Numbered from the stretch's first letter, positions 10,151 through 23,077 are shown. The stretch: DNA of 64,000 bases from Candidatus Poribacteria bacterium (GCA_965222225.1 CBDCTK010000002.1:2752001-2816000), one strand, 5' to 3'. The notes: generated by a model from the sequence alone, not told the origin. A program made the numbers and translations.

Positions 10151-11568
10151 TTACGAACGATACCACTGGGGGAGAGCGTTTTATCTATCGCTGTCTGCTG
10201 AAGATCTTATGTTGCTTCTTAACGGTTGGATTCCCCATGGCACCCGACCCAAAAGCCGATGACAAAACTGATATGATTCAACTTGTGGATTCCGATCTCA
10301 ACGACAAAGGTCACAATTCTCCCTTTCAGAGACCAATGGAGGTTAAGGTGTCTAGCGAATTGGCGGACAATCGCATCGGAGGCGACTACGGGAGCGATCA
10401 TCCGGGCTCCGAAGAGGGAATCTATCGACTGGGGCTAAAATGGTTGCGGATCGGATTTTGGGACAGCTCTCTTAATTGGCAGGAGGTGGAGTCCCGTCCG
10501 GGCGAATATAGCATTCCACCCGAACGAGATGCTTTCGTCCGCGACATGGTGGAAAATGGCGTCACTCTTGTGCTTTGCCTTAGTGTCGGATCAGGCAAAA
10601 ACCGACTGGATAGCACAAAATTCAAATCGGACGATGATATTAACCGCTACGCCAATTACGTGCGCTTCATGGTGCGGCATTTCAAGTCGTTCATCAGATA
10701 CTATGAAATCTGGAATGAGCCGGATACCGATACGCCTTGGGGAGGCATCGCCGTTGAAGACTTTGCCCGACTCATCAAGCACGTCATCCCTGTTATCCGA
10801 GAGGAGTATCCCGAAGCCAAAATCGTTGCAGGCGCCACCGGCGGTTATTGGGTATCCGGATTCCCCGGATACGGGAAGTTTTCACGTTACACCCTGGATC
10901 TTGATTACCTGAAAACGCTTCTAAAATCCGGGATAGCGCCGCTGATAGATGTGATTTCGTGGCACCCCTTCTACGGTCATACTCCCGACGATCCGTACTA
11001 CCAAAATTATCCGCAAATGGTGGAAGAACTCAAAGCGTTGGGGGCAGCCGAAGGCTTTAACGGAAAATACTTGGTAGAGGAGATGCTATGGAGAACCGAA
11101 CGGGCGGATGAACCTCAACAGTCAGTATCAGCGATTGTCTCGGCAAAATACCTTGCCAGAGCCATCCTGACACATCTCGGGTTGGACGTTACTGCCAGCG
11201 TCTCCGGCATGTTTCCCGGTGAATGTCCCCACTTCGTGCGGCGATTATGCACCGTTATGGCTGGCGCCGCGCCAATCAGCCTTCCTCTCGAGATCGAGAG
11301 CGCCGCCGCCAATATAAGGCACTACGGATTCTCTCTACCTAACGGCGATAGACTCCTCGCGCTTTGGACCAACGGCGTCGCCGTTGACGAAGATCTCGGC
11401 GTGCAAGCTGACCTACTGCTTCGGGGGCTTTCAGCTCAAAACGTGGTAGGCGTGGACATCCGAAATGGGGTGGAACATGAGATCCTGACAAGCGCGCAAA
11501 ACGGGAATCTAACGATTCGGGGCCTTCTCGTTAAAGATTATCCCATCATCCTTCGCCTGCTTCAATAA
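10147..11568 (+). CDS. Clan GH-A TIM-barrel glycoside hydrolase (GH39/GH5-like)
   Basis: YYEIWNEPD acid/base motif, DVISWHP, LVEE candidate nucleophile; ATGA overlap with the upstream gene. Confidence 0.8.
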   Translation: MITNDTTGGERFIYRCLLKILCCFLTVGFPMAPDPKADDKTDMIQLVDSDLNDKGHNSPFQRPMEVKVSSELADNRIGGDYGSDHPGSEEGIYRLGLKWLRIGFWDSSLNWQEVESRPGEYSIPPERDAFVRDMVENGVTLVLCLSVGSGKNRLDSTKFKSDDDINRYANYVRFMVRHFKSFIRYYEIWNEPDTDTPWGGIAVEDFARLIKHVIPVIREEYPEAKIVAGATGGYWVSGFPGYGKFSRYTLDLDYLKTLLKSGIAPLIDVISWHPFYGHTPDDPYYQNYPQMVEELKALGAAEGFNGKYLVEEMLWRTERADEPQQSVSAIVSAKYLARAILTHLGLDVTASVSGMFPGECPHFVRRLCTVMAGAAPISLPLEIESAAANIRHYGFSLPNGDRLLALWTNGVAVDEDLGVQADLLLRGLSAQNVVGVDIRNGVEHEILTSAQNGNLTIRGLLVKDYPIILRLLQ

Positions 11569-11591
11569 TGTCAATCTCCTAGCAAAACAGC

Positions 11592-11622
11592 GAAACCGAG
11601 TTTTTCTTCACAACTCGGTTTC
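11592..11622. terminator. Hairpin (REP-like or terminator) between convergent genes
   Basis: GAAACCGAGTT-N-AACTCGGTTTC inverted repeat. Confidence 0.5.
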
Positions 11623-11737
11623 TCAACTCCCCGGTAAATGGAAGCCACTCAATCCAGACCGTCCGCGTTTCCGATCTTACGGAATCGACAACCAGCCACT
11701 GCGTGCCCTCATACAGTTCAGTCCCTCTACGCTAGTC

Positions 11738-12820
11738 CTAAGCTTCGTGGGACGTTACCGCTAACGAACGGCTCAAATAATCGCGATAGTCTTGTGCCTT
11801 GGTGTGACTATGCACACCAAGAAAATCATTCAGCGGTAGGCTCCCTAGCAGTTTCAACTCGTTGGATATCACTTGGCAATCTACCGGCGATTCCTTCTTC
11901 CAACCCCCGATGATCGCCCGCTCCAACGGCGAAACGCCATCAAGTCCTTTGGCATCCCTTTGTCGTTTGAGGTCGAGATTAAGCACATAGAGATTGACAA
12001 AATTGGCGTTCAAATAATCAATCGTCGCCTTATCGCCGAGGACAACTGCCCTCAAGATTTTTCCGCTTCCTCAGCACGACTCGCCCATGAAGGTACCATC
12101 CGCCGAAACAACATGGATAGGACGATCAAGCGCTTTTGCCATCTCTGCTGCCTCTTCCAGCGTTACCCATTCAATGGATTGCGCAGGATAAAACTGCCTC
12201 GCTAATCCAAGTCGTGCCTCTTCCATGGGGATTTCTTCGGAGTAAGCCAACGCTTGAGTGACTTCTTCGCCGACAGTCATCTCAATTCGGCAAACACCGC
12301 ATTCGGTGACGGTGAGTTCGTCATCCCGTTTCCTGTGGGCATCAAAGTTAAGCGTGCTCGGTGGAACGGACATCTCAAAATATATCAATTCCTCCAAGCG
12401 CCGGTCAATAATCAGGGTTCCAGCAAGTTGAGAGGGTGTAAACTTCCCATCCTTGAACGTGAACACCGTGTGGATGCGGAACACTATCTCAGCGTAGTTG
12501 TCGTTGAATCCGCGAAGGGATGCCCACTGGCCTATGTCCTCATGATTCCACAGTTCAAGTTGCGGCTCTTCGGCGAGTTGCTTCAATAGCTGAAGTGCGG
12601 ATTCGGGGTCGATTTTCCAGTGTTCGCCGACAGAGACCGCCTTCCGCGGGAGAAAGCCTTGAAATGTCGAGGCGGGATAGTTTCTTTGTGCTTCAACCTC
12701 TCTCAGCGTCGCAAGCGGCTCCCAGTCCACATGAAAGCCGGCTGTAGTAAACGTAATTGGGGGAATAGATGCGTTAACGGAAATCGGCTCAGGTCCATTT
12801 AGCTCAAGCTAAATTTTCAT
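11738..12820 (-). pseudogene. Selenoprotein N-like protein, copy C (Sec UGA at 12071-12073; premature TAG at codon 4)
   Basis: ATG AAA ATT TAG CTT GAG at 12820; ORFs 12071-12730 and 11738-12055 join in frame through GESC-UGA-GSGKILRAVVL. Confidence 0.85.
12032..12058 (-). promoter_or_regulatory. Putative bacterial SECIS element (copy C)
   Basis: ATC-TT-GAGGGC-AGTT-GTCCTC-GG-C-GAT hairpin; loop begins 24 nt after the UGA. Confidence 0.75.
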
Positions 12821-12854
12821 TGTTTTTTCCTAAGAATCATTCTTTTTGCTTCCC

Positions 12855-13084
12855 GCGCAAGTCCTAACATAACTGGCATCCTCTTTTCCGTCTAGCGGAA
12901 CAGGAGTGCCGATATAATAATCAAAAGTCTCTCACTTGTACACAATTTCGGATGCACTTTACAACTTTCTCACATCGGATGCTGCCAGGCGAACACAGAC
13001 TCTTTTGCATTCGGTCTAGCTCGCCAAATTCACGAATCGCCAATCAATTGACGACACACCTCCCGTTACTTCGTGCAAGTCCTA
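12855..13084. repeat. Duplicated intergenic segment of the tandem array (matches ~14196-14425)
   Basis: Near-identical gcgcaagtcctaacataactggcatcc...cggatgcactttac...cccgttactt.gtgcaagtcctac. Confidence 0.9.
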
Positions 13085-14160
13085 CACTTCTGGAGGCGTT
13101 TCCGCTAACGAATGCTTCAAGAATTTACGATATCCCTGAGCCTCGTTGTTAACGTTCTCGTCAAGAAAATCATTGAGCGGTATGCTCCCTAGCAGTTTCA
13201 ACTCGCTAGAAATCACTTGGCAATCTACGGGTGAATCCTTGTTCCAACCGCCGATGATGACGCGTTCCAAGGGCGAAACGCCATCAAGTCCTTTTATGTC
13301 CCGGTGCTGTTTGAGGTCAAGATTGAGAACCCAGAGGTTAACAAAGTTGGCGTTTAAATACCCAATCGTGTCTTTATCGCCGAGGACAACTGCCCTCAAG
13401 AATTTGCCGCTCCCTCAGCACGACTCGTCCATGAAGGTGCCGTCCGCCGAAACAACATGGATGGGGCGGTCAAGCGTTTTTGCCATCTCTGCTGCGTCTT
13501 CCAGCCTTACCCATTGAATGGATTGCGCGGGGTAAAACTGCCTCCCAAGCCCAAGGCGTGCCTCTTCCATCGAGATTTCTTCGGAATAGGTTAATCCTTG
13601 GGTGACTTTTTCGCCGGCAATCATGTCGATGCGACAAACACCGCAATCTGTGATACCGCGATACTCATCGTAGTTCTTAATAACATCAAAGTTCAACGTA
13701 CCGGGAGGAACGGACATCTCAAAATAAGCTAATTCCTCCTGGCGCCGGTCATTGTTAACCGACCGGAAAACTGTGAGGGTGTAAACCTTCCATCGTCGAA
13801 CACTAACACCGTATGGATACGGAACACAATCTCCGCGTAATCGCCATTGAAGGCGCGAAGCGATGCCCACTGTCCTCCTTCATCATTCTGTAATTCCAGT
13901 TGTGGCTTTTCGGCGAGTTGCGTCAGTAGCTGGAGTGCGGCTTCCGGGTCAATTTTCCAGTGTTCGCCTACAGAAACCACCTCTCGCGGGAGAAAGCCTC
14001 GAAATGTTGAGACCGTATAGTTTCTTTGCGGTTCAACCTCTCTCAGCGTCGCAAGTGTCTCCCAGTCCACATGAAAGCCAGCTGTAGTAAACTCAATTGG
14101 CGGAATGGATGCGTTGACTAAAATCGGTTCCGCACCGTTTATCTCAAGCGGTATCTTCAT
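13082..14160 (-). pseudogene. Selenoprotein N-like protein, copy B (Sec UGA at 13415-13417; 1-nt deletion near 13752)
   Basis: FSGRLT-AT-DRRQEELAYF frameshift relative to the other copies; DESC-UGA-GSGKFLRAVVL. Confidence 0.85.
13376..13402 (-). promoter_or_regulatory. Putative bacterial SECIS element (copy B)
   Basis: GAGGGC-AGTT-GTCCTC at the same offset from the UGA as in the other copies. Confidence 0.75.
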
Positions 14161-14422
14161 CGTTTATTCCTAAAGAATTATTCCATTTGCTACTTGCGCA
14201 AGTCCTAACATAACTGGCATCCTCTTTTCCGTCTAGCGGAACAGGAGTGCCGATATAATAATCAAAAGTCTCTCACTTGTACACAATTTCGGATGCACTT
14301 TACGATCTTCTCACATCGGATTCTGCCAAGTGAACGCGAACCTTTTTGCTTTCCGTCGAAATAGCCGAATTCACGAATCGCCAATCAATTGACGGCACAT
14401 CTCCCGTTACTTTGTGCAAGTC

Positions 14423-15505
14423 CTACGATTTTGGGGACGTTTCCGCTAACGAATGCTTCAAGAATTTACGATATCCCTGAGCCTCGTTGTTAACGTTCTC
14501 GTCAATAAAATCATGGAGTGGTAGGCTCCGGAGCAGTTTCAACTTGCTAGAGATTACCTCACAATCAACAGGTGAATCCTTATTCCAACCCCCAATGATG
14601 GCGCGTTCCAAGGGCGAAACGCCATCAAGTCCTTTTATGTCCCGGTGCTGTTTGAGGTCAAGATTGAGAACCCAGAGGTTAACAAAGTTGGCGTTCAAAT
14701 ACTCAATTGTCTTCTTGTCGGCGAGGGCACCTGCCCTCAAGATTTTTCCACTTCCTCAGCACGACTCATCCATGAAGGTGCCATCCGCCGAAACAACATG
14801 GATGGGACGGTCAAGCAACTTAGCCCTCTCTGGTGCTTCTTCCAGCTTTACCCATTCAATGGATTGGGCAGGATAAAACTGCCTCGCTAATCCAAGTCGT
14901 GCCTCTTCCATGGAGATTTCTTCGGAGTAAGCCAACGCTTGAGTGACTTCTTTGCCGGCAATCATCTCAATTCTACAAACACCACTCTCCGCGGCCCAGA
15001 AACCTTCATCGAATTTCCTACCAGCATCAAAATTCAGCGTACTCGGCGGAACAGACATCTCGAAGTAAGCTAATTTCTCCAAGCGGCGGTCGATAATGAG
15101 ACTTCCGGCAAATTGTGATGGCGTAAAAAACCCATCCTTCCACGCAAACACGGCGTGGAAGCGAAACACAATCTCCGCATAATCGTCATTGTAGGCGCGA
15201 AGTGATGCCCATTTGCCTTCGTCATCACCAATCCGCGGCTCTAGTCTCGGATTTTCAGCGAACTGCTTTAGTAACTCAAGCACAGTCTCAGGATCAATTT
15301 CCCAATGTTCACCCACAGCAACTGCCTTCAGCGGCAGGAAACCACGTAGGGTTGAGATGGGGTAGCTTTTCTGCGATTCTACCTCTCGCATCGTTGCAAG
15401 CGACTCCCAGTCCACATGATAACCGGCTGTAGTAAACTCGATCGGGGCAATGGATGCGTTGACTAAAATCGGATCCGGTCCATTTAATTCGAGGTGAATT
15501 TTCAT
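14423..15505 (-). CDS. Selenoprotein N (SELENON)-like selenoprotein, copy A, intact, 360 aa with Sec at UGA 14756-14758
   Basis: In-frame DESC-UGA-GSGKILRAGAL. Flanking motifs (IVFRFHAVF, FTPSQFAG, EEISMEEAR..L....YP, YLNANFVNLW) match SELENON motifs as I recall them (VMFRIHAEF, FSPAQFTG, QELSWEEAAR, DQSCUGSGRTLR, LLNESFISTW). Confidence 0.9.
14720..14743 (-). promoter_or_regulatory. Putative bacterial SECIS element (copy A)
   Basis: GAGGGC-AGGT-GCCCTC perfect stem; the G-U pair of copies B and C is G-C here. Confidence 0.78.
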
Positions 15506-15650
15506 CGTTTTCCCCAGTAACTTGCCTGACCATTCAAAGCGCAGGGAATAACGATCAAGCAAGCGCACACCGAGTGCGATAGAAATCCCTCGTTAATCCC
15601 TATATACGAATTAGACCTTGCTTTTTTGTTCCTTTCTATGAATCAGGCAA

Positions 15651-15678
15651 GTAGGGGACGCAGATCTGCGTCCCCTAC
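15651..15678. repeat. GTAG-type REP palindrome
   Basis: GTAGGGGACGCAGATCTGCGTCCCCTAC perfect palindrome; variants at 36729, 42975, ~7990 and ~42740. Confidence 0.85.
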
Positions 15679-15800
15679 TTGCTTGCTGAAGTGCGTAGGT
15701 CCTACAGTGTTTCCAAATATACACAATTTCGGATGCACTTTACGGTTTTCTTAAATCGTCAATGATAATCGGTTTCACTCCGTCCCAAACTCAAAATTCT

Positions 15801-16625
15801 TCAACCCCTCCACTTATCCAACCCCAGCAGCTTCCTCCCCAACGGAGTGAGTTTTGCGGTCTTACCCTCCCCGTTTTCCTTCTCCTCACGCTCGCCGGTA
15901 AACCCTGCCCCGCGGTTGCGCCACCCGTCAATCCGTTTTGCTCGGGCTTCCTCGCTTTCCTCTTCGGCGGGAAACATCGTGATATATTGCGCCACGCGAG
16001 GTTGGTCGGCGCTATTCGGGCCCGCCCCGTGAGGCAAACTGCTGTGCCAGATTATCAGATCCCCCGCCTTCCCCGCAATCGGCTCTGCGCCCAAACTTTC
16101 CAAGTCCTGCTGCTTCGGATCGGCATCCTTCGGGAGGGATTCCAGCCACGCTTCCATCTTGTGATGAAACCCGGGCACGCAGGTGAACGCGCCCTGATTA
16201 GCCGCCGTGTCCGTCAGATACAGCACGCCTTGCACACCTAATTTAGCTGGCGGATTAAAGGGATTTCTATCCCAATGCAGCCCGGCATCCGTACGGTTCC
16301 AATTCGGCGGACGATTGGGCGGACTCATGCTTGCCCGATCAAAGCTTACCCACAACTGCTCCGTATCCCAGATTTCGGCAAAGGCTTGATGTACGCGCGG
16401 GATTTGACGATTGTCCCATAGCGCTTGATGCTGGTAAATCTCCACCATGATACTGGAGCGCGGCGGGTCAGGATACCAACTCTCCCTATCCTTCGCATCC
16501 ATCTCAAGAAATTCCCAAACCGCGGCCTCAGCCGCTTTCGTATTCACCGGTGATACCGCGTCATGAACGACAACGTAACCATGCTCTTCCCAGAAGGCGC
16601 GGTCTTCCGCACTTAAAACGGGCAT
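15801..16625 (-). CDS. Phytanoyl-CoA dioxygenase (PhyH) family protein
   Basis: FWEEHGYVVV, LHWD, VQGVLYL, GAFTCVPGFH, AGDLIIWH..LPHG. Confidence 0.9.
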   Translation of the reverse strand: MPVLSAEDRAFWEEHGYVVVHDAVSPVNTKAAEAAVWEFLEMDAKDRESWYPDPPRSSIMVEIYQHQALWDNRQIPRVHQAFAEIWDTEQLWVSFDRASMSPPNRPPNWNRTDAGLHWDRNPFNPPAKLGVQGVLYLTDTAANQGAFTCVPGFHHKMEAWLESLPKDADPKQQDLESLGAEPIAGKAGDLIIWHSSLPHGAGPNSADQPRVAQYITMFPAEEESEEARAKRIDGWRNRGAGFTGEREEKENGEGKTAKLTPLGRKLLGLDKWRG

Positions 16626-20191: not shown

Positions 20192-20267
20192 TCTCCCGTA
20201 GCTCAGTTGGTAGAGCAGGTGGCTGTTAACCACTTTGTCGGCGGTTCGAATCCGTCCGGGAGAGCCA
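20192..20267 (+). tRNA. tRNA-Asn(GTT)
   Basis: Acceptor stem TCTCCCG/CGGGAGA, D-arm AGCTCAGTTGGTAGAGC, anticodon GTT, GGTTCGAATCC, encoded CCA. Confidence 0.97.
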
Positions 20268-20365
20268 TATTTTTTCCGATTGCCAACGTGGGCAACCCGT
20301 TGGCTAACACAAGACCCCGAGAGGATACCCCATCGGGGTCTTGTCGTATCTGGGGTTTTTTCAAC

Positions 20366-23077
20366 GTGAACTACGACAATCCGACTACCAAAGTAAATGA
20401 TTCCATTGCTAGGGCGCTCAAATTGCCGCGCGGCGCCACATTCCACCGTTGCGCGTTACGCGTTAACTCCTATGGTTGCAGCGGCAGCGTCCGGGAGCAG
20501 AGCAGTATCTCGGATGCCGAAACGCACGCAAAACACATTATCGCAAAGGCCGTGGAGTTACAGGTTGCCGTCCTAGCGATAACTGACTACAATGATGTTA
20601 GAGGTGTACCGGTTTTTCAGGATGCCGCCGCCCGCCACGAGATCCACGTATTCCCAGGATTCAAGCTTTCTTCAAGCGAGGGAGTGCCTGTCTTGTGCAT
20701 TTATCCCGAGGATACCAACAACGAACTGGATAACTTCCTCGGCGAGTTCGGAATTACACAGCCGGGGCAGTCTACAGACCTTTCGACCAGGAGTTTCATT
20801 GAGATTCTGCGCGTAGTTCGACAGCAGGGCGGTGTCACCATTGCTGCGCCTGCCGTGAAGGGCAATCTTCGCCTTGGCAACCTTGGGGATCAAGCAAAGA
20901 TTCAAGCGTGGAAAAACGAGAATCTAGTCGCCATCCAGATTCCGGGTCAGATTGAACATTTACCGCAGGATGTACGCTCAATTATTCAAAACGCGAACGA
21001 CAGATACCGGCGCGACCATCCCGCAGGCGAGGAAATGGCGATAGCGGTCGTCAATGCCAACAACATCGTGCAACCCGAAGACTTAGAACACCCCTCGGCA
21101 ACCTGCTGGATAAAGATGTCCGAAATCAGCGTTGAGGGTTTGAGACAGGCGTTCTTGGACCCGGGTTCACGTATCCGCCTTAACCCTCAAGACGAGTCGG
21201 AAAAACACGCCGAGTTGGTTGCAATAGCCTGGGAAGGAGGATTTCTTGATGGCGCGGCGGTGCATTTCAACCAAAACCTCAATGTTCTCGTGGGTGGGCG
21301 CGGCGCCGGTAAGTCCACAGTCATTGAAAGCGTGCGCTATGTGCTAGGTTTGGAGCCTATTGGCGAGGATGCACGCAAAGCCCACGAAGGAATCGTTCGC
21401 CAAGTGCTACGCAGCGGGACGAAAATTTCCCTTCTCGCGCAATGCATTCGCCCGACACCACATAAATACACAATTGAGCGCACGGTTCCGAACCCGCCAC
21501 TAGTTCGCCTTGAGGAGGGCGAGATATCGAACCTTCTTCCTGAAGAGGTTCTTCCTCGAATTGAAGTCTATGGGCAACACGAGATCTCGGAACTCACCAA
21601 CAGCCCGGAGAAACTCACGCGGCTCCTCAATCGATTTGTGGAGCGTGATGGGTCTCTGGAGCGGCGGAAGGCTGAGTTGCGCCGGGATCTGGAGAAAAAT
21701 AGGCGGTCGATTGTAGATGTACGCGACGAGCTGGGACAAATTGAAGATCGGCTGGCAACTCTTCCCGCCCTAGAAGAAACCCTTGAACGCTATAAGCAAG
21801 CCGGATTTGAAGAGCGTTTGAACGAGCAGAGTCTCTTGGTGCGCGAGGAGCGCGTGCTCGACTCAATCCCCGAGCGGCTGCGGACATTTGACGAATGCCT
21901 TGACCTTCTGCGACAGGAGATTCCCATTGATCGCGCATTCTTGTCACCGCGTGCGCTCAGTGACCTGCCCGGAAGGGAGATACTCACTGATGCCAATCAA
22001 GTGCTGGAGCACCTGAATCGTGACATTGCCCAGATTGTGGACCGACTCGAGGAAGCACTGAGACTTGCTAACGAAGGGATTTCCGAGATCAGGTCTCGTT
22101 GGAACGTGCGGGTGCGCGAGGTGCAGACCGCATACGAGAGTATCCTTCGCGACCTGCAGGCATTGGCAGTCGACGGAGAAGATTTCATTCGCCTGCGGCG
22201 CGAAATTGAAGGACTTCAACCCTTGCGACAGCGCCAATCCCTGTTGCAACGGCTCCAAAATGAGTACGTGACGCGTCGTCGGACGCTCCGCGATGAGTGG
22301 AAAAATTTGAAAGACGAAGAGATAGAGCTCCTCCGCCAAGCCGCAAGAAATGTTGGGAAAAAGCTCCCTGACCGCGTCCAAGTGGAGGTCACCGAGGCAG
22401 GCGATCGAGAGTCGCTGTTCCAGCTACTTCGTGATGAGATTGGGGGCCGCCTCTCCGAAGCTATTGATGCACTTAGGCAACCACAGAAACTCTCCCCACA
22501 AGAGTTAGCTAAGGAATTACGCGCAGGCACGGAAGCCGTGCAAAGAATCTACGCAATCCCATCCGGCCAGGCGGAGCGTCTCACGAAAGCCTCGGAGGAG
22601 GTTTTTATGAAGATCGAGGAGTTGGACTTGTCCCCAACAACGGCAATCCAACTCAACACCGCCCCAGCAGGAAAACCGCCCAACTGGCGAGCGCTCGAGG
22701 ACCTGTCAAAGGGCCAGAAAGCCACCGCCGTTCTCCTGCTCCTGCTGTTGGATTCCGATGCGCCATTGATTGTGGACCAACCGGAGGACGACCTTGACAA
22801 TCGCTTCATCACTGAGGGCATAGTCCCCAAGATGCGGGAGGAGAAACTTAGGAGGCAGTTCTTGTTCTCGACCCACAACGCCAATATCCCGGTTCTCGGC
22901 GATGCCGAACTCATCCTCGGACTCACGGCGATAGGTGAAGCCATCCAAGGAATGGCACAAATCGCGGCTGAACACATGGGATCTATTGACTCACAATCGA
23001 TTCAAGAATTGGTTAAGGACCTACTGGAAGGCGGTAAGGATGCCTTTGAGACACGGCGGTTGAAGTATGGCTTCTAA
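20366..23077 (+). CDS. PHP-like domain plus SMC/ABC-type ATPase (TrlF/Ppl-like), PHP site degenerate
   Basis: Walker A GGRGAGKS, long coiled coil, LSKGQK signature, Walker B IVDQPEDDLD, STHN; N-terminal PHP-fold motifs. Start uncertain because the longer ORF overlaps the tRNA. Confidence 0.85.
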   Translation: MNYDNPTTKVNDSIARALKLPRGATFHRCALRVNSYGCSGSVREQSSISDAETHAKHIIAKAVELQVAVLAITDYNDVRGVPVFQDAAARHEIHVFPGFKLSSSEGVPVLCIYPEDTNNELDNFLGEFGITQPGQSTDLSTRSFIEILRVVRQQGGVTIAAPAVKGNLRLGNLGDQAKIQAWKNENLVAIQIPGQIEHLPQDVRSIIQNANDRYRRDHPAGEEMAIAVVNANNIVQPEDLEHPSATCWIKMSEISVEGLRQAFLDPGSRIRLNPQDESEKHAELVAIAWEGGFLDGAAVHFNQNLNVLVGGRGAGKSTVIESVRYVLGLEPIGEDARKAHEGIVRQVLRSGTKISLLAQCIRPTPHKYTIERTVPNPPLVRLEEGEISNLLPEEVLPRIEVYGQHEISELTNSPEKLTRLLNRFVERDGSLERRKAELRRDLEKNRRSIVDVRDELGQIEDRLATLPALEETLERYKQAGFEERLNEQSLLVREERVLDSIPERLRTFDECLDLLRQEIPIDRAFLSPRALSDLPGREILTDANQVLEHLNRDIAQIVDRLEEALRLANEGISEIRSRWNVRVREVQTAYESILRDLQALAVDGEDFIRLRREIEGLQPLRQRQSLLQRLQNEYVTRRRTLRDEWKNLKDEEIELLRQAARNVGKKLPDRVQVEVTEAGDRESLFQLLRDEIGGRLSEAIDALRQPQKLSPQELAKELRAGTEAVQRIYAIPSGQAERLTKASEEVFMKIEELDLSPTTAIQLNTAPAGKPPNWRALEDLSKGQKATAVLLLLLLDSDAPLIVDQPEDDLDNRFITEGIVPKMREEKLRRQFLFSTHNANIPVLGDAELILGLTAIGEAIQGMAQIAAEHMGSIDSQSIQELVKDLLEGGKDAFETRRLKYGF

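Follow-up and report, generated by a model that had tools for sequence, protein, structure and literature searches.

Three neighbouring genes of a poribacterial genome are each interrupted by an in-frame TGA codon at the same place, and this raises the question of whether the codon ends translation or specifies selenocysteine (Sec), and of what protein would be made if it is read through. The DNA analyzed (the window) is a stretch of 64,000 nucleotides from Candidatus Poribacteria bacterium (GCA_965222225.1 CBDCTK010000002.1:2752001-2816000), in which three paralogs of 1.08 kb each are arranged head to tail on the minus strand at positions 11738-15505. We consider it highly probable that this array consists of three members of a bacterial selenoprotein family homologous to the catalytic core of selenoprotein N (SELENON, SelN); only copy 3 is whole. 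The human gene for SELENON is linked to disease (SEPN1-related myopathy), and the substrate chemistry of the protein is only partly known.

In all three copies the TGA lies within ESC-TGA-GSGK, which would place Sec in an S-C-U-G motif, and under translation table 11 each unit is interrupted there. The coordinates and layout of the units given in a preliminary description of the sequence were correct (Table 1). The five codons past the TGA are GGA AGT GGA AAA ATC in copy 3, GGG AGC GGC AAA TTC in copy 2 and GGA AGC GGA AAA ATC in copy 1; comparison of the three thus bears out the earlier observation that G-S-G-K is preserved by synonymous changes (GGA/GGG, AGT/AGC, GGA/GGC). Each paralog had also been described as two open reading frames (ORFs). 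This holds for copies 1 and 3, whereas copy 2 shows up as three pieces because a 1-nt deletion shifts its frame; compared with the other two, it lacks a further 3 nt in frame. Copy 3 encodes an uninterrupted product of 360 residues with U at residue 250, and AGGA-like or GGGGA motifs are found 7-9 nt 5' of its ATG. The product begins MKIHLELNGPDPILVNAS and, read directly, has no hydrophobic stretch, so that it lacks an N-terminal transmembrane anchor. A signal peptide is absent from the products of all three copies, and the array protein is therefore probably cytosolic.

Copies 1 and 2 both carry inactivating lesions. The TAG at codon 4 of copy 1 is CAG in related assemblies, and the next possible start after it is a GTG at 12730. 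Intact counterparts of the N-terminal parts of both copies are known: P0015 (249 aa) for copy 1, with Gln at codon 4, and P0056 (248 aa), from other assemblies, for copy 2, with the unshifted sequence ...RLTIDRRQEE.... We checked the lesions by comparing the array with Logan contigs of four public runs (X1, X3, X4 and X17). Run X1, in which 96% of sampled words were present, may be the source sample; its record 3 spans 12238-12884 with zero differences, confirming the TAG, and its record 4 spans 13523-14225 free of gaps, confirming the copy 2 deletion. In X3, X4 and X17, each from another study, the plus-strand base at 12811 is G and the codon is CAG, so that among the four runs the nonsense codon was found in X1 only. 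A contig of X4 (13433-13840) passes the copy 2 deletion site free of gaps, as the X1 contig does, and this deletion is therefore present in samples of at least two studies. Both lesions recur in independently built contigs and do not look like assembly artefacts. With a nonsense codon in copy 1 and a frameshift in copy 2, a full product is possible in this strain from copy 3 only; copies 1 and 2 would be recent pseudogenes or, at best, genes for truncated products. What is annotated in the window as six or seven ORF fragments is then three genes, two of them pseudogenes in this strain.

With lesions in two of three copies, seen in independently built contigs too, the whole array might be non-functional in this strain and copy 3 silent as well. 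RNA contigs, which come from run X17, reach only the 5' part of copy 3; they have 10-15 differences from it and hence derive from a related strain. Nevertheless, copy 3 is lesion-free and retains its hairpin (see below), its ribosome-binding motif and its upstream motif. The ratio of nonsynonymous to synonymous substitution rates (dN/dS) between pairs of copies is near 0.2 for all of them (0.19-0.20 overall, 0.17-0.19 upstream of the TGA and 0.22-0.23 downstream, codons 251-360). Orthologs are intact in the seven other array-bearing genomes of the genus listed, and the genome itself has two more intact, distant Sec paralogs at about 37% identity (L005, C2:5461994-5462947; L006, C2:3545968-3546762). 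A wholly silent array is accordingly unlikely. The same dN/dS values revise an earlier characterization of the array as expanded and diversifying: the expansion stands, given the matches throughout the phylum described below, while the copies are under purifying selection and are not diversifying.

The product of copy 3 was modeled with AlphaFold2 from 10 sequences (predicted local distance difference test, pLDDT, 86.5; predicted template modeling score, pTM, 0.80). The model comprises an N-terminal beta-rich domain of about 185 residues, which folded alone with a pLDDT of 92.8, and a thioredoxin fold around Sec (residues ~205-360). The best VIA matches of the latter were 3f9u (Z 12.4, root-mean-square deviation (rmsd) 3.1, 121 residues aligned), 2lst (12.3), human AGR3 (3ph9, 12.0) and DsbH (2ju5, 11.5), followed by 7tkv (10.7) and the UAS domains 2dlx (9.7) and 2ec4 (9.5); Foldseek likewise found DsbH-type domains with E values from 2e-4 to 6e-4. 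Cys249 and Sec250 occupy the loop between the first beta-strand (235-240) and the helix at 254-258, at the site equivalent to CxxC, in a 10-residue block of lower pLDDT (63). Neither CxxC nor CxxS was found at the start of helix 1: the sequence there is C-U-G-S, in which Cys is directly followed by Sec. For the N-terminal domain the best VIA match among solved structures was 2fr2 (Z 5.7, rmsd 3.9, 121 aligned), a score that various beta-barrels equalled, and Foldseek gave nothing at E <= 0.001; this domain was therefore left without a fold assignment.

How close is this protein to SELENON? According to the available portions of two papers, SELENON has a transmembrane anchor, an EF-hand and Sec in the motif SCUG (PMC12839072), with Sec located within a thioredoxin-like domain (PMC7474598). 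The motif of the array proteins agrees with that definition, as had been proposed. The link to eukaryotes is provided by P0249, a protein of 387 residues from Logan contigs of 1.5-1.7 kb, in which a hydrophobic segment at the N-terminus is accompanied by an EF-hand recognized by Pfam (E 7.9e-8, above the cut-off). It terminates in ...LWGALDDQSC, precisely at the position of the bacterial C-UGA, as do all four members of its cluster. P0249 matched the window protein with E 2.2e-14 in an exhaustive phmmer search of the whole library; BLASTP aligned it with copy 3 at E 7e-22 (30% identity over 231 residues), and hhalign aligned it with the family alignment A1 at 99.8% probability (E 1.1e-29) over 249 columns up to SC. 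Most of this last alignment lies in the beta-rich N-terminal domain and not in the thioredoxin fold, and the match is therefore not one of generic fold similarity. In the ESM Atlas, whose scores are leads and not tests, the nearest clusters to P0249 are eukaryotic (a chordate 'hypothetical protein' at 0.97, 'selenoprotein N' at 0.85), and for the bacterial Cys form P0123 a cluster named 'Selenoprotein N' ranks first (0.93, 207/256 features), ahead of Planctomycetota clusters. When 292 collected family proteins were searched with a regular expression for the EF-hand loop, only the four members of the P0249 cluster matched. Homology to SELENON is well supported for the part before Sec, and we regard the array proteins as SELENON-core homologs rather than SELENON orthologs in the full sense, since the membrane anchor and the EF-hand are absent; this agrees with their first description as SelN homologs free of both N-terminal features.

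A superficial likeness, produced by a common thioredoxin fold and a convergent C-U motif in proteins that are not truly homologous, has to be weighed here. It would account for the fact that no named full-length SELENON was aligned, that Pfam and the PDB gave no match, and that the Atlas, with its 0.85 for P0249 and the 'selenoprotein N' cluster, offers leads only. It does not explain an alignment that extends over the beta domain and into the thioredoxin domain and breaks off at the same SC, where a stop follows, nor the occurrence of this stop at the same point throughout the P0249 cluster, nor the first place of a 'Selenoprotein N' cluster among the Atlas matches of P0123. We find convergence very improbable and retain homology with the SELENON core.

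The evidence that the TGA of the array genes is a Sec codon comes from several sides. As suggested at the outset, we looked for homologs with Cys at this position and found five: P0123, P0126, P0128 and P0129, all with SCCGSGK, and P0140, with ACCATGK. All five can be aligned with the window protein upstream as well as downstream of the TGA, and the residues past U are conserved in A1. Coding constraint persists beyond the TGA, as the dN/dS of 0.22-0.23 for codons 251-360 shows. The genome (5.7 Mb in two contigs) contains the full set of genes whose presence had been proposed as a check, namely selA (601 bits), selB (343 bits), the gene for tRNA-Sec (selC, 76 bits) and selD (364 bits), all above the curated cut-offs. 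The first three are contiguous (G000:C2:1590238-1593758) and selD stands apart (C2:2933348-2934274); ARAGORN also reports a tRNA-SeC with anticodon TCA. SelD is probably itself a selenoprotein here, as there is one in-frame TGA in its gene. Since TGA terminates 12 of the 33 long open frames of the window, the genome cannot use a code in which every TGA is sense. Moreover, exactly one internal TGA was present in each of the 150 phylum matches listed, so that the codon is not there by chance. The TGA thus very probably encodes Sec, in agreement with the earlier proposal of translation through it.

Two family members have other residues at the Sec position, P0273 with Thr (...EVC-T-SSGK...) and P0157 with Ala (...TC-A-PMG...), and these may lack activity or serve another function.

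Were the TGA an ordinary stop, each gene would specify a protein of 249 residues and a second one of about 105 residues starting from the TTG five codons past the TGA. Gene callers do split the genes in this way, 119 of the 120 database matches listed comprise the pre-TGA part only, several short proteins begin at a TTG or CTG codon (query 277-278), and other genes of the window use TGA as a regular stop. However, the Cys homologs run continuously through the position, G-S-G-K, encoded between the TGA and the TTG, is conserved as protein sequence through synonymous changes, the frame is preserved in all 150 matches listed, and the predicted thioredoxin fold needs strand 235-240 together with helices and strands encoded past the TGA. 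With the Sec machinery and a suitable hairpin present in addition, two separate proteins are a highly improbable outcome.

This hairpin starts 17 nt after the UGA and resembles a bacterial selenocysteine insertion sequence (SECIS) (Table 1); copies 1 and 2 have AGUU-GUCCUC in place of the AGGU-GCCCUC of copy 3. It has a 6-bp stem, a 4-nt loop (AGGU or AGUU, with G at position 2), a distance of 23 nt from UGA to loop and an energy of -11.9 kcal/mol, and it agrees on all four counts with the consensus bacterial SECIS model (PMC13188914, Fig. 2 legend). Its conservation was analyzed in 46 distinct UGA sites of the family from 32 loci (L005, L006 and L026-L055), taken from regular-expression matches only. 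Over the six stem pairs of these sites 96.3% of 270 cells were paired, versus 47-74% with the 3' arm slid by 1-3 columns, and the observed values were reached by two of 500 shuffles. Codon choice in the stem and loop is narrow: among the 46 sites Arg is AGG in 42 and AGA in 4, with CGN absent, Ala is GCA in 43/45, the closing Leu is CTC in 44/45, and the loop codon ends in T in all 46 sites (Gly GGT 31/31, Val GTT 15/15). In 24 long ORFs of the window the same codons make up 18%, 22%, 19%, 26% and 24% of their families (Arg, Ala, Gly, Val and Leu, respectively), and a Leu nine codons further downstream uses five codons freely. Two sites with Glu in the 3' arm retain a 6-bp stem through a two-base shift of the arm, as judged by eye. 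The hairpin energy was no better than that of shuffled sequences (z from -0.1 to -1.3 in 69-nt windows), and the case for the hairpin therefore rests on conservation and not on energy. An Rfam search of 11500-15900 found no SECIS family; it gave three chance microRNA-like matches (E 1.6-3.3), some of them at the palindrome GTAGGGGACGCAGATCTGCGTCCCCTAC discussed below.

Taken together, these features suggest the following course of expression. In each mRNA the UGA would be followed, 17 nt on, by the 6-bp hairpin with its A-G-G/U-U loop, to which SelB carrying Sec-tRNA(Sec) would bind, so that Sec is inserted. The predicted product has about 360 residues, no signal peptide, an N-terminal beta-rich domain and a C-terminal thioredoxin-fold domain, and it would act as a thiol/selenol oxidoreductase through a Cys249-Sec250 selenenylsulfide, in line with what has been proposed for SCUG in SELENON. 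What the analysis shows comprises the features of the sequence, its homology, the predicted fold and the presence of the Sec machinery; Sec insertion, the redox chemistry and a cellular substrate are inferred.

Several points weigh against this interpretation. Covariation in the hairpin is weak: only pair 24-33 (GC 32, GU 6, AU 3) changed on both sides, in 3 cells. Since the stem also codes for the conserved L-R-A-G/V, constraint on the protein explains part of its conservation. RNA run X17 has contigs in 15 of 30 bins of the array; the bins that they leave uncovered are uninformative, and coverage by contigs of an RNA library does not prove transcription. Two of the three copies are broken, and the array is partly decaying in this strain. 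As to the assignment, P0249 is unnamed, its identification as SELENON derives from its architecture and from language-model leads, and homology to SELENON is supported for the part before Sec. Nor does any curated family back it, as the searches of Pfam, NCBIfam and the PDB by sequence were empty: the window protein (P0001) hit 0 families in Pfam and NCBIfam, and as a single protein it had no PDB match at E <= 1. A PDB search with the family profile returned 3ira alone, with a non-significant E of 1.3, in which Cys249 stands opposite the first Cys of the CxxC of 3ira. Word-indexed protein searches with the whole protein, with region 225-381 and with A1 yielded, among the matches listed, only unnamed or 'hypothetical' bacterial proteins.

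The family to which the array belongs is large. The exhaustive phmmer search found 303 clusters (50% identity) at E <= 0.001. After removal of sequences at least 80% identical, and with P0001 and rows with more than 60 gaps left out, 129 representatives were obtained. In total 118 of them end at the Cys before the UGA and are Sec forms cut by gene callers; the other 11 are three read-through translations, P0091 (in which the TGA was called W), P0273, four Cys forms, P0209 and P0157. Judged from these sequences, nearly all family members carry Sec. NCBI and JGI records call the family proteins 'hypothetical protein'. Many members have N-termini resembling signal peptides or those of lipoproteins (by eye), a feature absent from the three array copies.

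Other domain combinations were also seen. P0126 (a Cys form) and P0251 (a Sec form) consist of an N-terminal extracytoplasmic function (ECF) sigma factor (Sigma70_r2 and r4, E from 1e-10 to 1e-16), a hydrophobic segment and a SelN-like domain, which hints at a use of this domain as a sensor attached to a sigma factor. P0215 contains leucine-rich repeats, and P0264 (1101 aa) has a long N-terminal region.

In a sample of 151 genomes of the phylum (G000, the genome of the array, included), matches were found in 117; they occurred in 8/9 genomes of family f1, 10/26 of f2 and 98/100 of f3, and in 0/15 of six other families. There were 766 matches in total, with up to 15 per genome; the entry '1 TAA' in some match rows denotes the natural stop, as checked in L031. 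All eight other genomes of the same genus have matches, and seven of them contain tandem arrays of two to four copies among the matches listed (e.g., four copies at G017:C41:67829-72347). The two distant paralogs of the present genome have the motif ESC-U-ANAK or ESC-U-ANGK and a different hairpin sequence (loop GGUC or GGGUCA, by eye), and the L005 protein carries an extra C-terminal domain of about 140 residues that it shares with P0091 and P0273 and that has no Pfam match. Outside the phylum, where sampling was sparse, a scan of named genomes gave one locus, a Sec form with ESC-TGA-GSGK in a metagenome-assembled genome (MAG) of Planctomycetota.

To place P0249 and the array within the family, we built a quick maximum-likelihood tree (LG+C20, SH-aLRT) of the region common to P0249, with 129 rows and 178 columns; it is unrooted, bears no taxon labels and includes one eukaryote-like sequence, on a long branch (1.66). 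P0249 belongs to a group of 51 rows (SH-aLRT 97), mostly ...QSC-type proteins with bacterial-looking N-termini, and the array copies form part of an 11-row clade (SH-aLRT 99) within the other side of 78 rows. Because the two are located in different parts of the tree, a recent exchange between an animal host and the array is not supported. Although the closest named relative among the matches listed is a Candidatus Poribacteria MAG, the organism was presumed at first to be a likely animal symbiont, and SELENON is described as animal-specific (PMC2375036, in the part of its text available), the idea that the array was recently acquired from or donated to a host, raised as a question at the outset, is hardly credible in view of the number of family clusters, the SCUGSGK motif of the Planctomycetota Sec form, the in-frame hairpin of bacterial type, the opposite positions of P0249 and the array in the tree and an identity to P0249 of just 30%.

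The tree fits a family that is old in bacteria. It can be hypothesized, tentatively and with somewhat less than even confidence, that the SELENON core (beta domain, thioredoxin domain and C-U center) descends from a large, ancient and almost wholly Sec-dependent bacterial family. This family would comprise forms with no signal peptide, forms with signal- or lipoprotein-like N-termini, and forms fused to leucine-rich repeats or to ECF sigma factors (a hint of redox sensing), and would reach some 15 matches per genome in Poribacteria-like genomes. The position of Sec would then have been kept across the divide between bacteria and eukaryotes despite entirely different SECIS systems, and the bacterial proteins could serve as the first tractable models of the biochemistry and structure of the human myopathy protein.

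The features of the array are listed in Table 1.

Table 1. Position of the gene copies, hairpin, upstream motifs and spacers of the array within the window
Feature	Position	Strand	Details
Copy 3	14423-15505	minus	ATG at 15505; 360 codons; U250 = TGA 14756-14758; TAG stop 14423-14425
Copy 3 SECIS-like hairpin	14723-14738	minus	GAGGGC-AGGU-GCCCUC; nt 21-36 from the U of UGA
Copy 2	13082-14160	minus	TGA 13415-13417; hairpin 13382-13397; 1-nt deletion between 13750 and 13751
Copy 1	11738-12820	minus	TGA 12071-12073; hairpin 12038-12053; TAG at codon 4 (12809-12811)
23-nt motif GTAAAGTGCATCCGAAATTGTGT	15721-15743	minus	216 nt 5' of copy 3 ATG
23-nt motif GTAAAGTGCATCCGAAATTGTGT	14281-14303	minus	121 nt 5' of copy 2 ATG; followed by promoter-like TGTACA-N17-TATTAT
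23-nt motif GTAAAGTGCATCCGAAATTGTGT	12940-12962	minus	120 nt 5' of copy 1 ATG; followed by promoter-like TGTACA-N17-TATTAT
Spacer	14161-14422		
Spacer	12821-13081		

A 23-nt motif, GTAAAGTGCATCCGAAATTGTGT, precedes each of the three copies. At up to two mismatches it occurs five times in the 5.7-Mb genome, and its reversed control does not occur at all. One of the two further occurrences (1 mismatch; C2:5463386-5463408) is located about 260 nt 5' of the distant paralog in L005. The fifth (2 mismatches) was not counted as part of a regulon, because the 848-codon frame that follows it contains no SelN-like sequence by eye. A 20-nt core of the motif was found once in each of three genomes of the same genus, 117-180 nt 5' of the first array gene. 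GTAAAGTGCATCCGAAATTGTGT is a candidate operator or promoter-proximal regulatory element of the family. A scan for promoters (6 sites, 4.5 expected) and terminators (5 sites, 5.0 expected) gave no excess over chance.

The two spacers between the copies are 261-262 nt long, and about 190 nt of each, GTAAAGTGCATCCGAAATTGTGT included, are duplicated; in most arrays of the genus the spacers have 65-77 nt. A contig of the X17 RNA library links 12830 to 13076 and skips 245 nt, as in a strain with no such insert. It should also be mentioned that copies 2 and 3 are far closer to each other after the UGA (13082-13414 vs 14423-14755; dS 0.32, with nearly identical 3' ends) than before it (dS 1.0), which suggests gene conversion between neighboring copies.

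The neighbors of the array are genes for oxidoreductases of sugar metabolism, epimerases, a PfkB kinase and a PhyH dioxygenase, from which no hint of its function emerges. Between the upstream PhyH-like gene and copy 3 there is a perfect 28-nt palindrome, GTAGGGGACGCAGATCTGCGTCCCCTAC (15645-15682), which may be a terminator or a repeat element. Farther away, an ORF of 956 residues (20207-23077) has weak matches to AAA_21, AAA_23 and SMC_N (E from 1e-6 to 1e-8), all of them below the Pfam cut-offs or devoid of a significant stretch; it may encode an ATPase of a defence or repair system.

We then asked whether the family had been described before. The searched literature contains no description of bacterial SelN homologs; supplementary tables (e.g., S9 of PMC4807772) and BSepDB lay outside that search. 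The combination of 'selenoprotein N' with Poribacteria gave nothing and the '-like' names nothing relevant, and together with Planctomycetes the term occurred in a reference title only. Apparent matches to selenoprotein N in the BSepDB paper and in a 2026 review were false and turned out to be other words. A SelN-like protein of Candidatus Poribacteria has reportedly been mentioned earlier, and no search confirmed this. The family has no model or description in Pfam or NCBIfam. The existence of a crystal structure of a bacterial SelN homolog was supported neither by PDB searches nor by PMC7474598, a 2020 paper whose available text states that SELENON had no solved structure. A text search of the 2026 catalogue of prokaryotic selenoproteins (PMC13188914) found neither the names SelN and SELENON nor an SCU or CUG motif. 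A 2007 paper holds, in the portion available, that SelN appears to be animal-specific (PMC2375036), and in 2012 SELENON was not listed among the selenoprotein families shared with prokaryotes (PMC3473315). The family is thus likely, but not certain, to be new.

If our interpretation is correct, a broad bacterial family with the same core and the same Sec position changes the picture of the origin of SELENON. Expression, crystallography and enzymology would also have small soluble homologs to work with, among them natural Cys forms. The bacterial selenoproteome would gain a family whose members are truncated at the UGA in current annotation, and the predicted number of selenoproteins in Poribacteria-like genomes would rise (up to about 15 matches per genome).

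Comparison of the array protein with known systems revealed that it resembles several of them in part. With SELENON it shares Sec in S-C-U-G and a thioredoxin-like domain around Sec (motif and domain as given in the available portions of PMC12839072 and PMC7474598, respectively), as well as significant similarity, over ~230-250 residues before Sec, to an EF-hand protein (P0249) that ends at the same SC. However, SELENON is a type II membrane selenoprotein of the endoplasmic reticulum, while the array protein has neither an N-terminal transmembrane segment nor an EF-hand and is probably cytosolic; its gene is multi-copy and Cys forms exist; and its SECIS would be a hairpin inside the ORF just past the UGA, in contrast to the element in the 3' untranslated region of SELENON. 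With the G-C-U-G of thioredoxin reductase, of which SCUG is called 'reminiscent' in the available text of PMC12839072, the array motif has in common the adjacent Cys and Sec followed by Gly, and selenenylsulfide chemistry is likely in both. In thioredoxin reductase, however, the motif is located on the flexible C-terminal tail of a flavoenzyme, whereas in the array protein it is internal, in the loop between strand 1 and helix 1, and Pfam reveals no FAD or NADPH domain. DsbH (Thioredox_DsbH), DsbD-gamma-like proteins, AGR2/AGR3/ERp19 and UAS domains are the best structural matches of residues ~205-360; they differ from the array protein in that identity is 10-20%, with no significant sequence match, and in that the array protein has C-U instead of CxxC and an extra N-terminal beta domain. 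Finally, the recoded UGA, the downstream hairpin, the existence of Cys homologs and the thioredoxin-like fold are all features of the bacterial thioredoxin-like selenoproteins catalogued in PMC13188914; the array family differs from them in the dominance of its Sec forms and in the lack of a matching Pfam or NCBIfam model.

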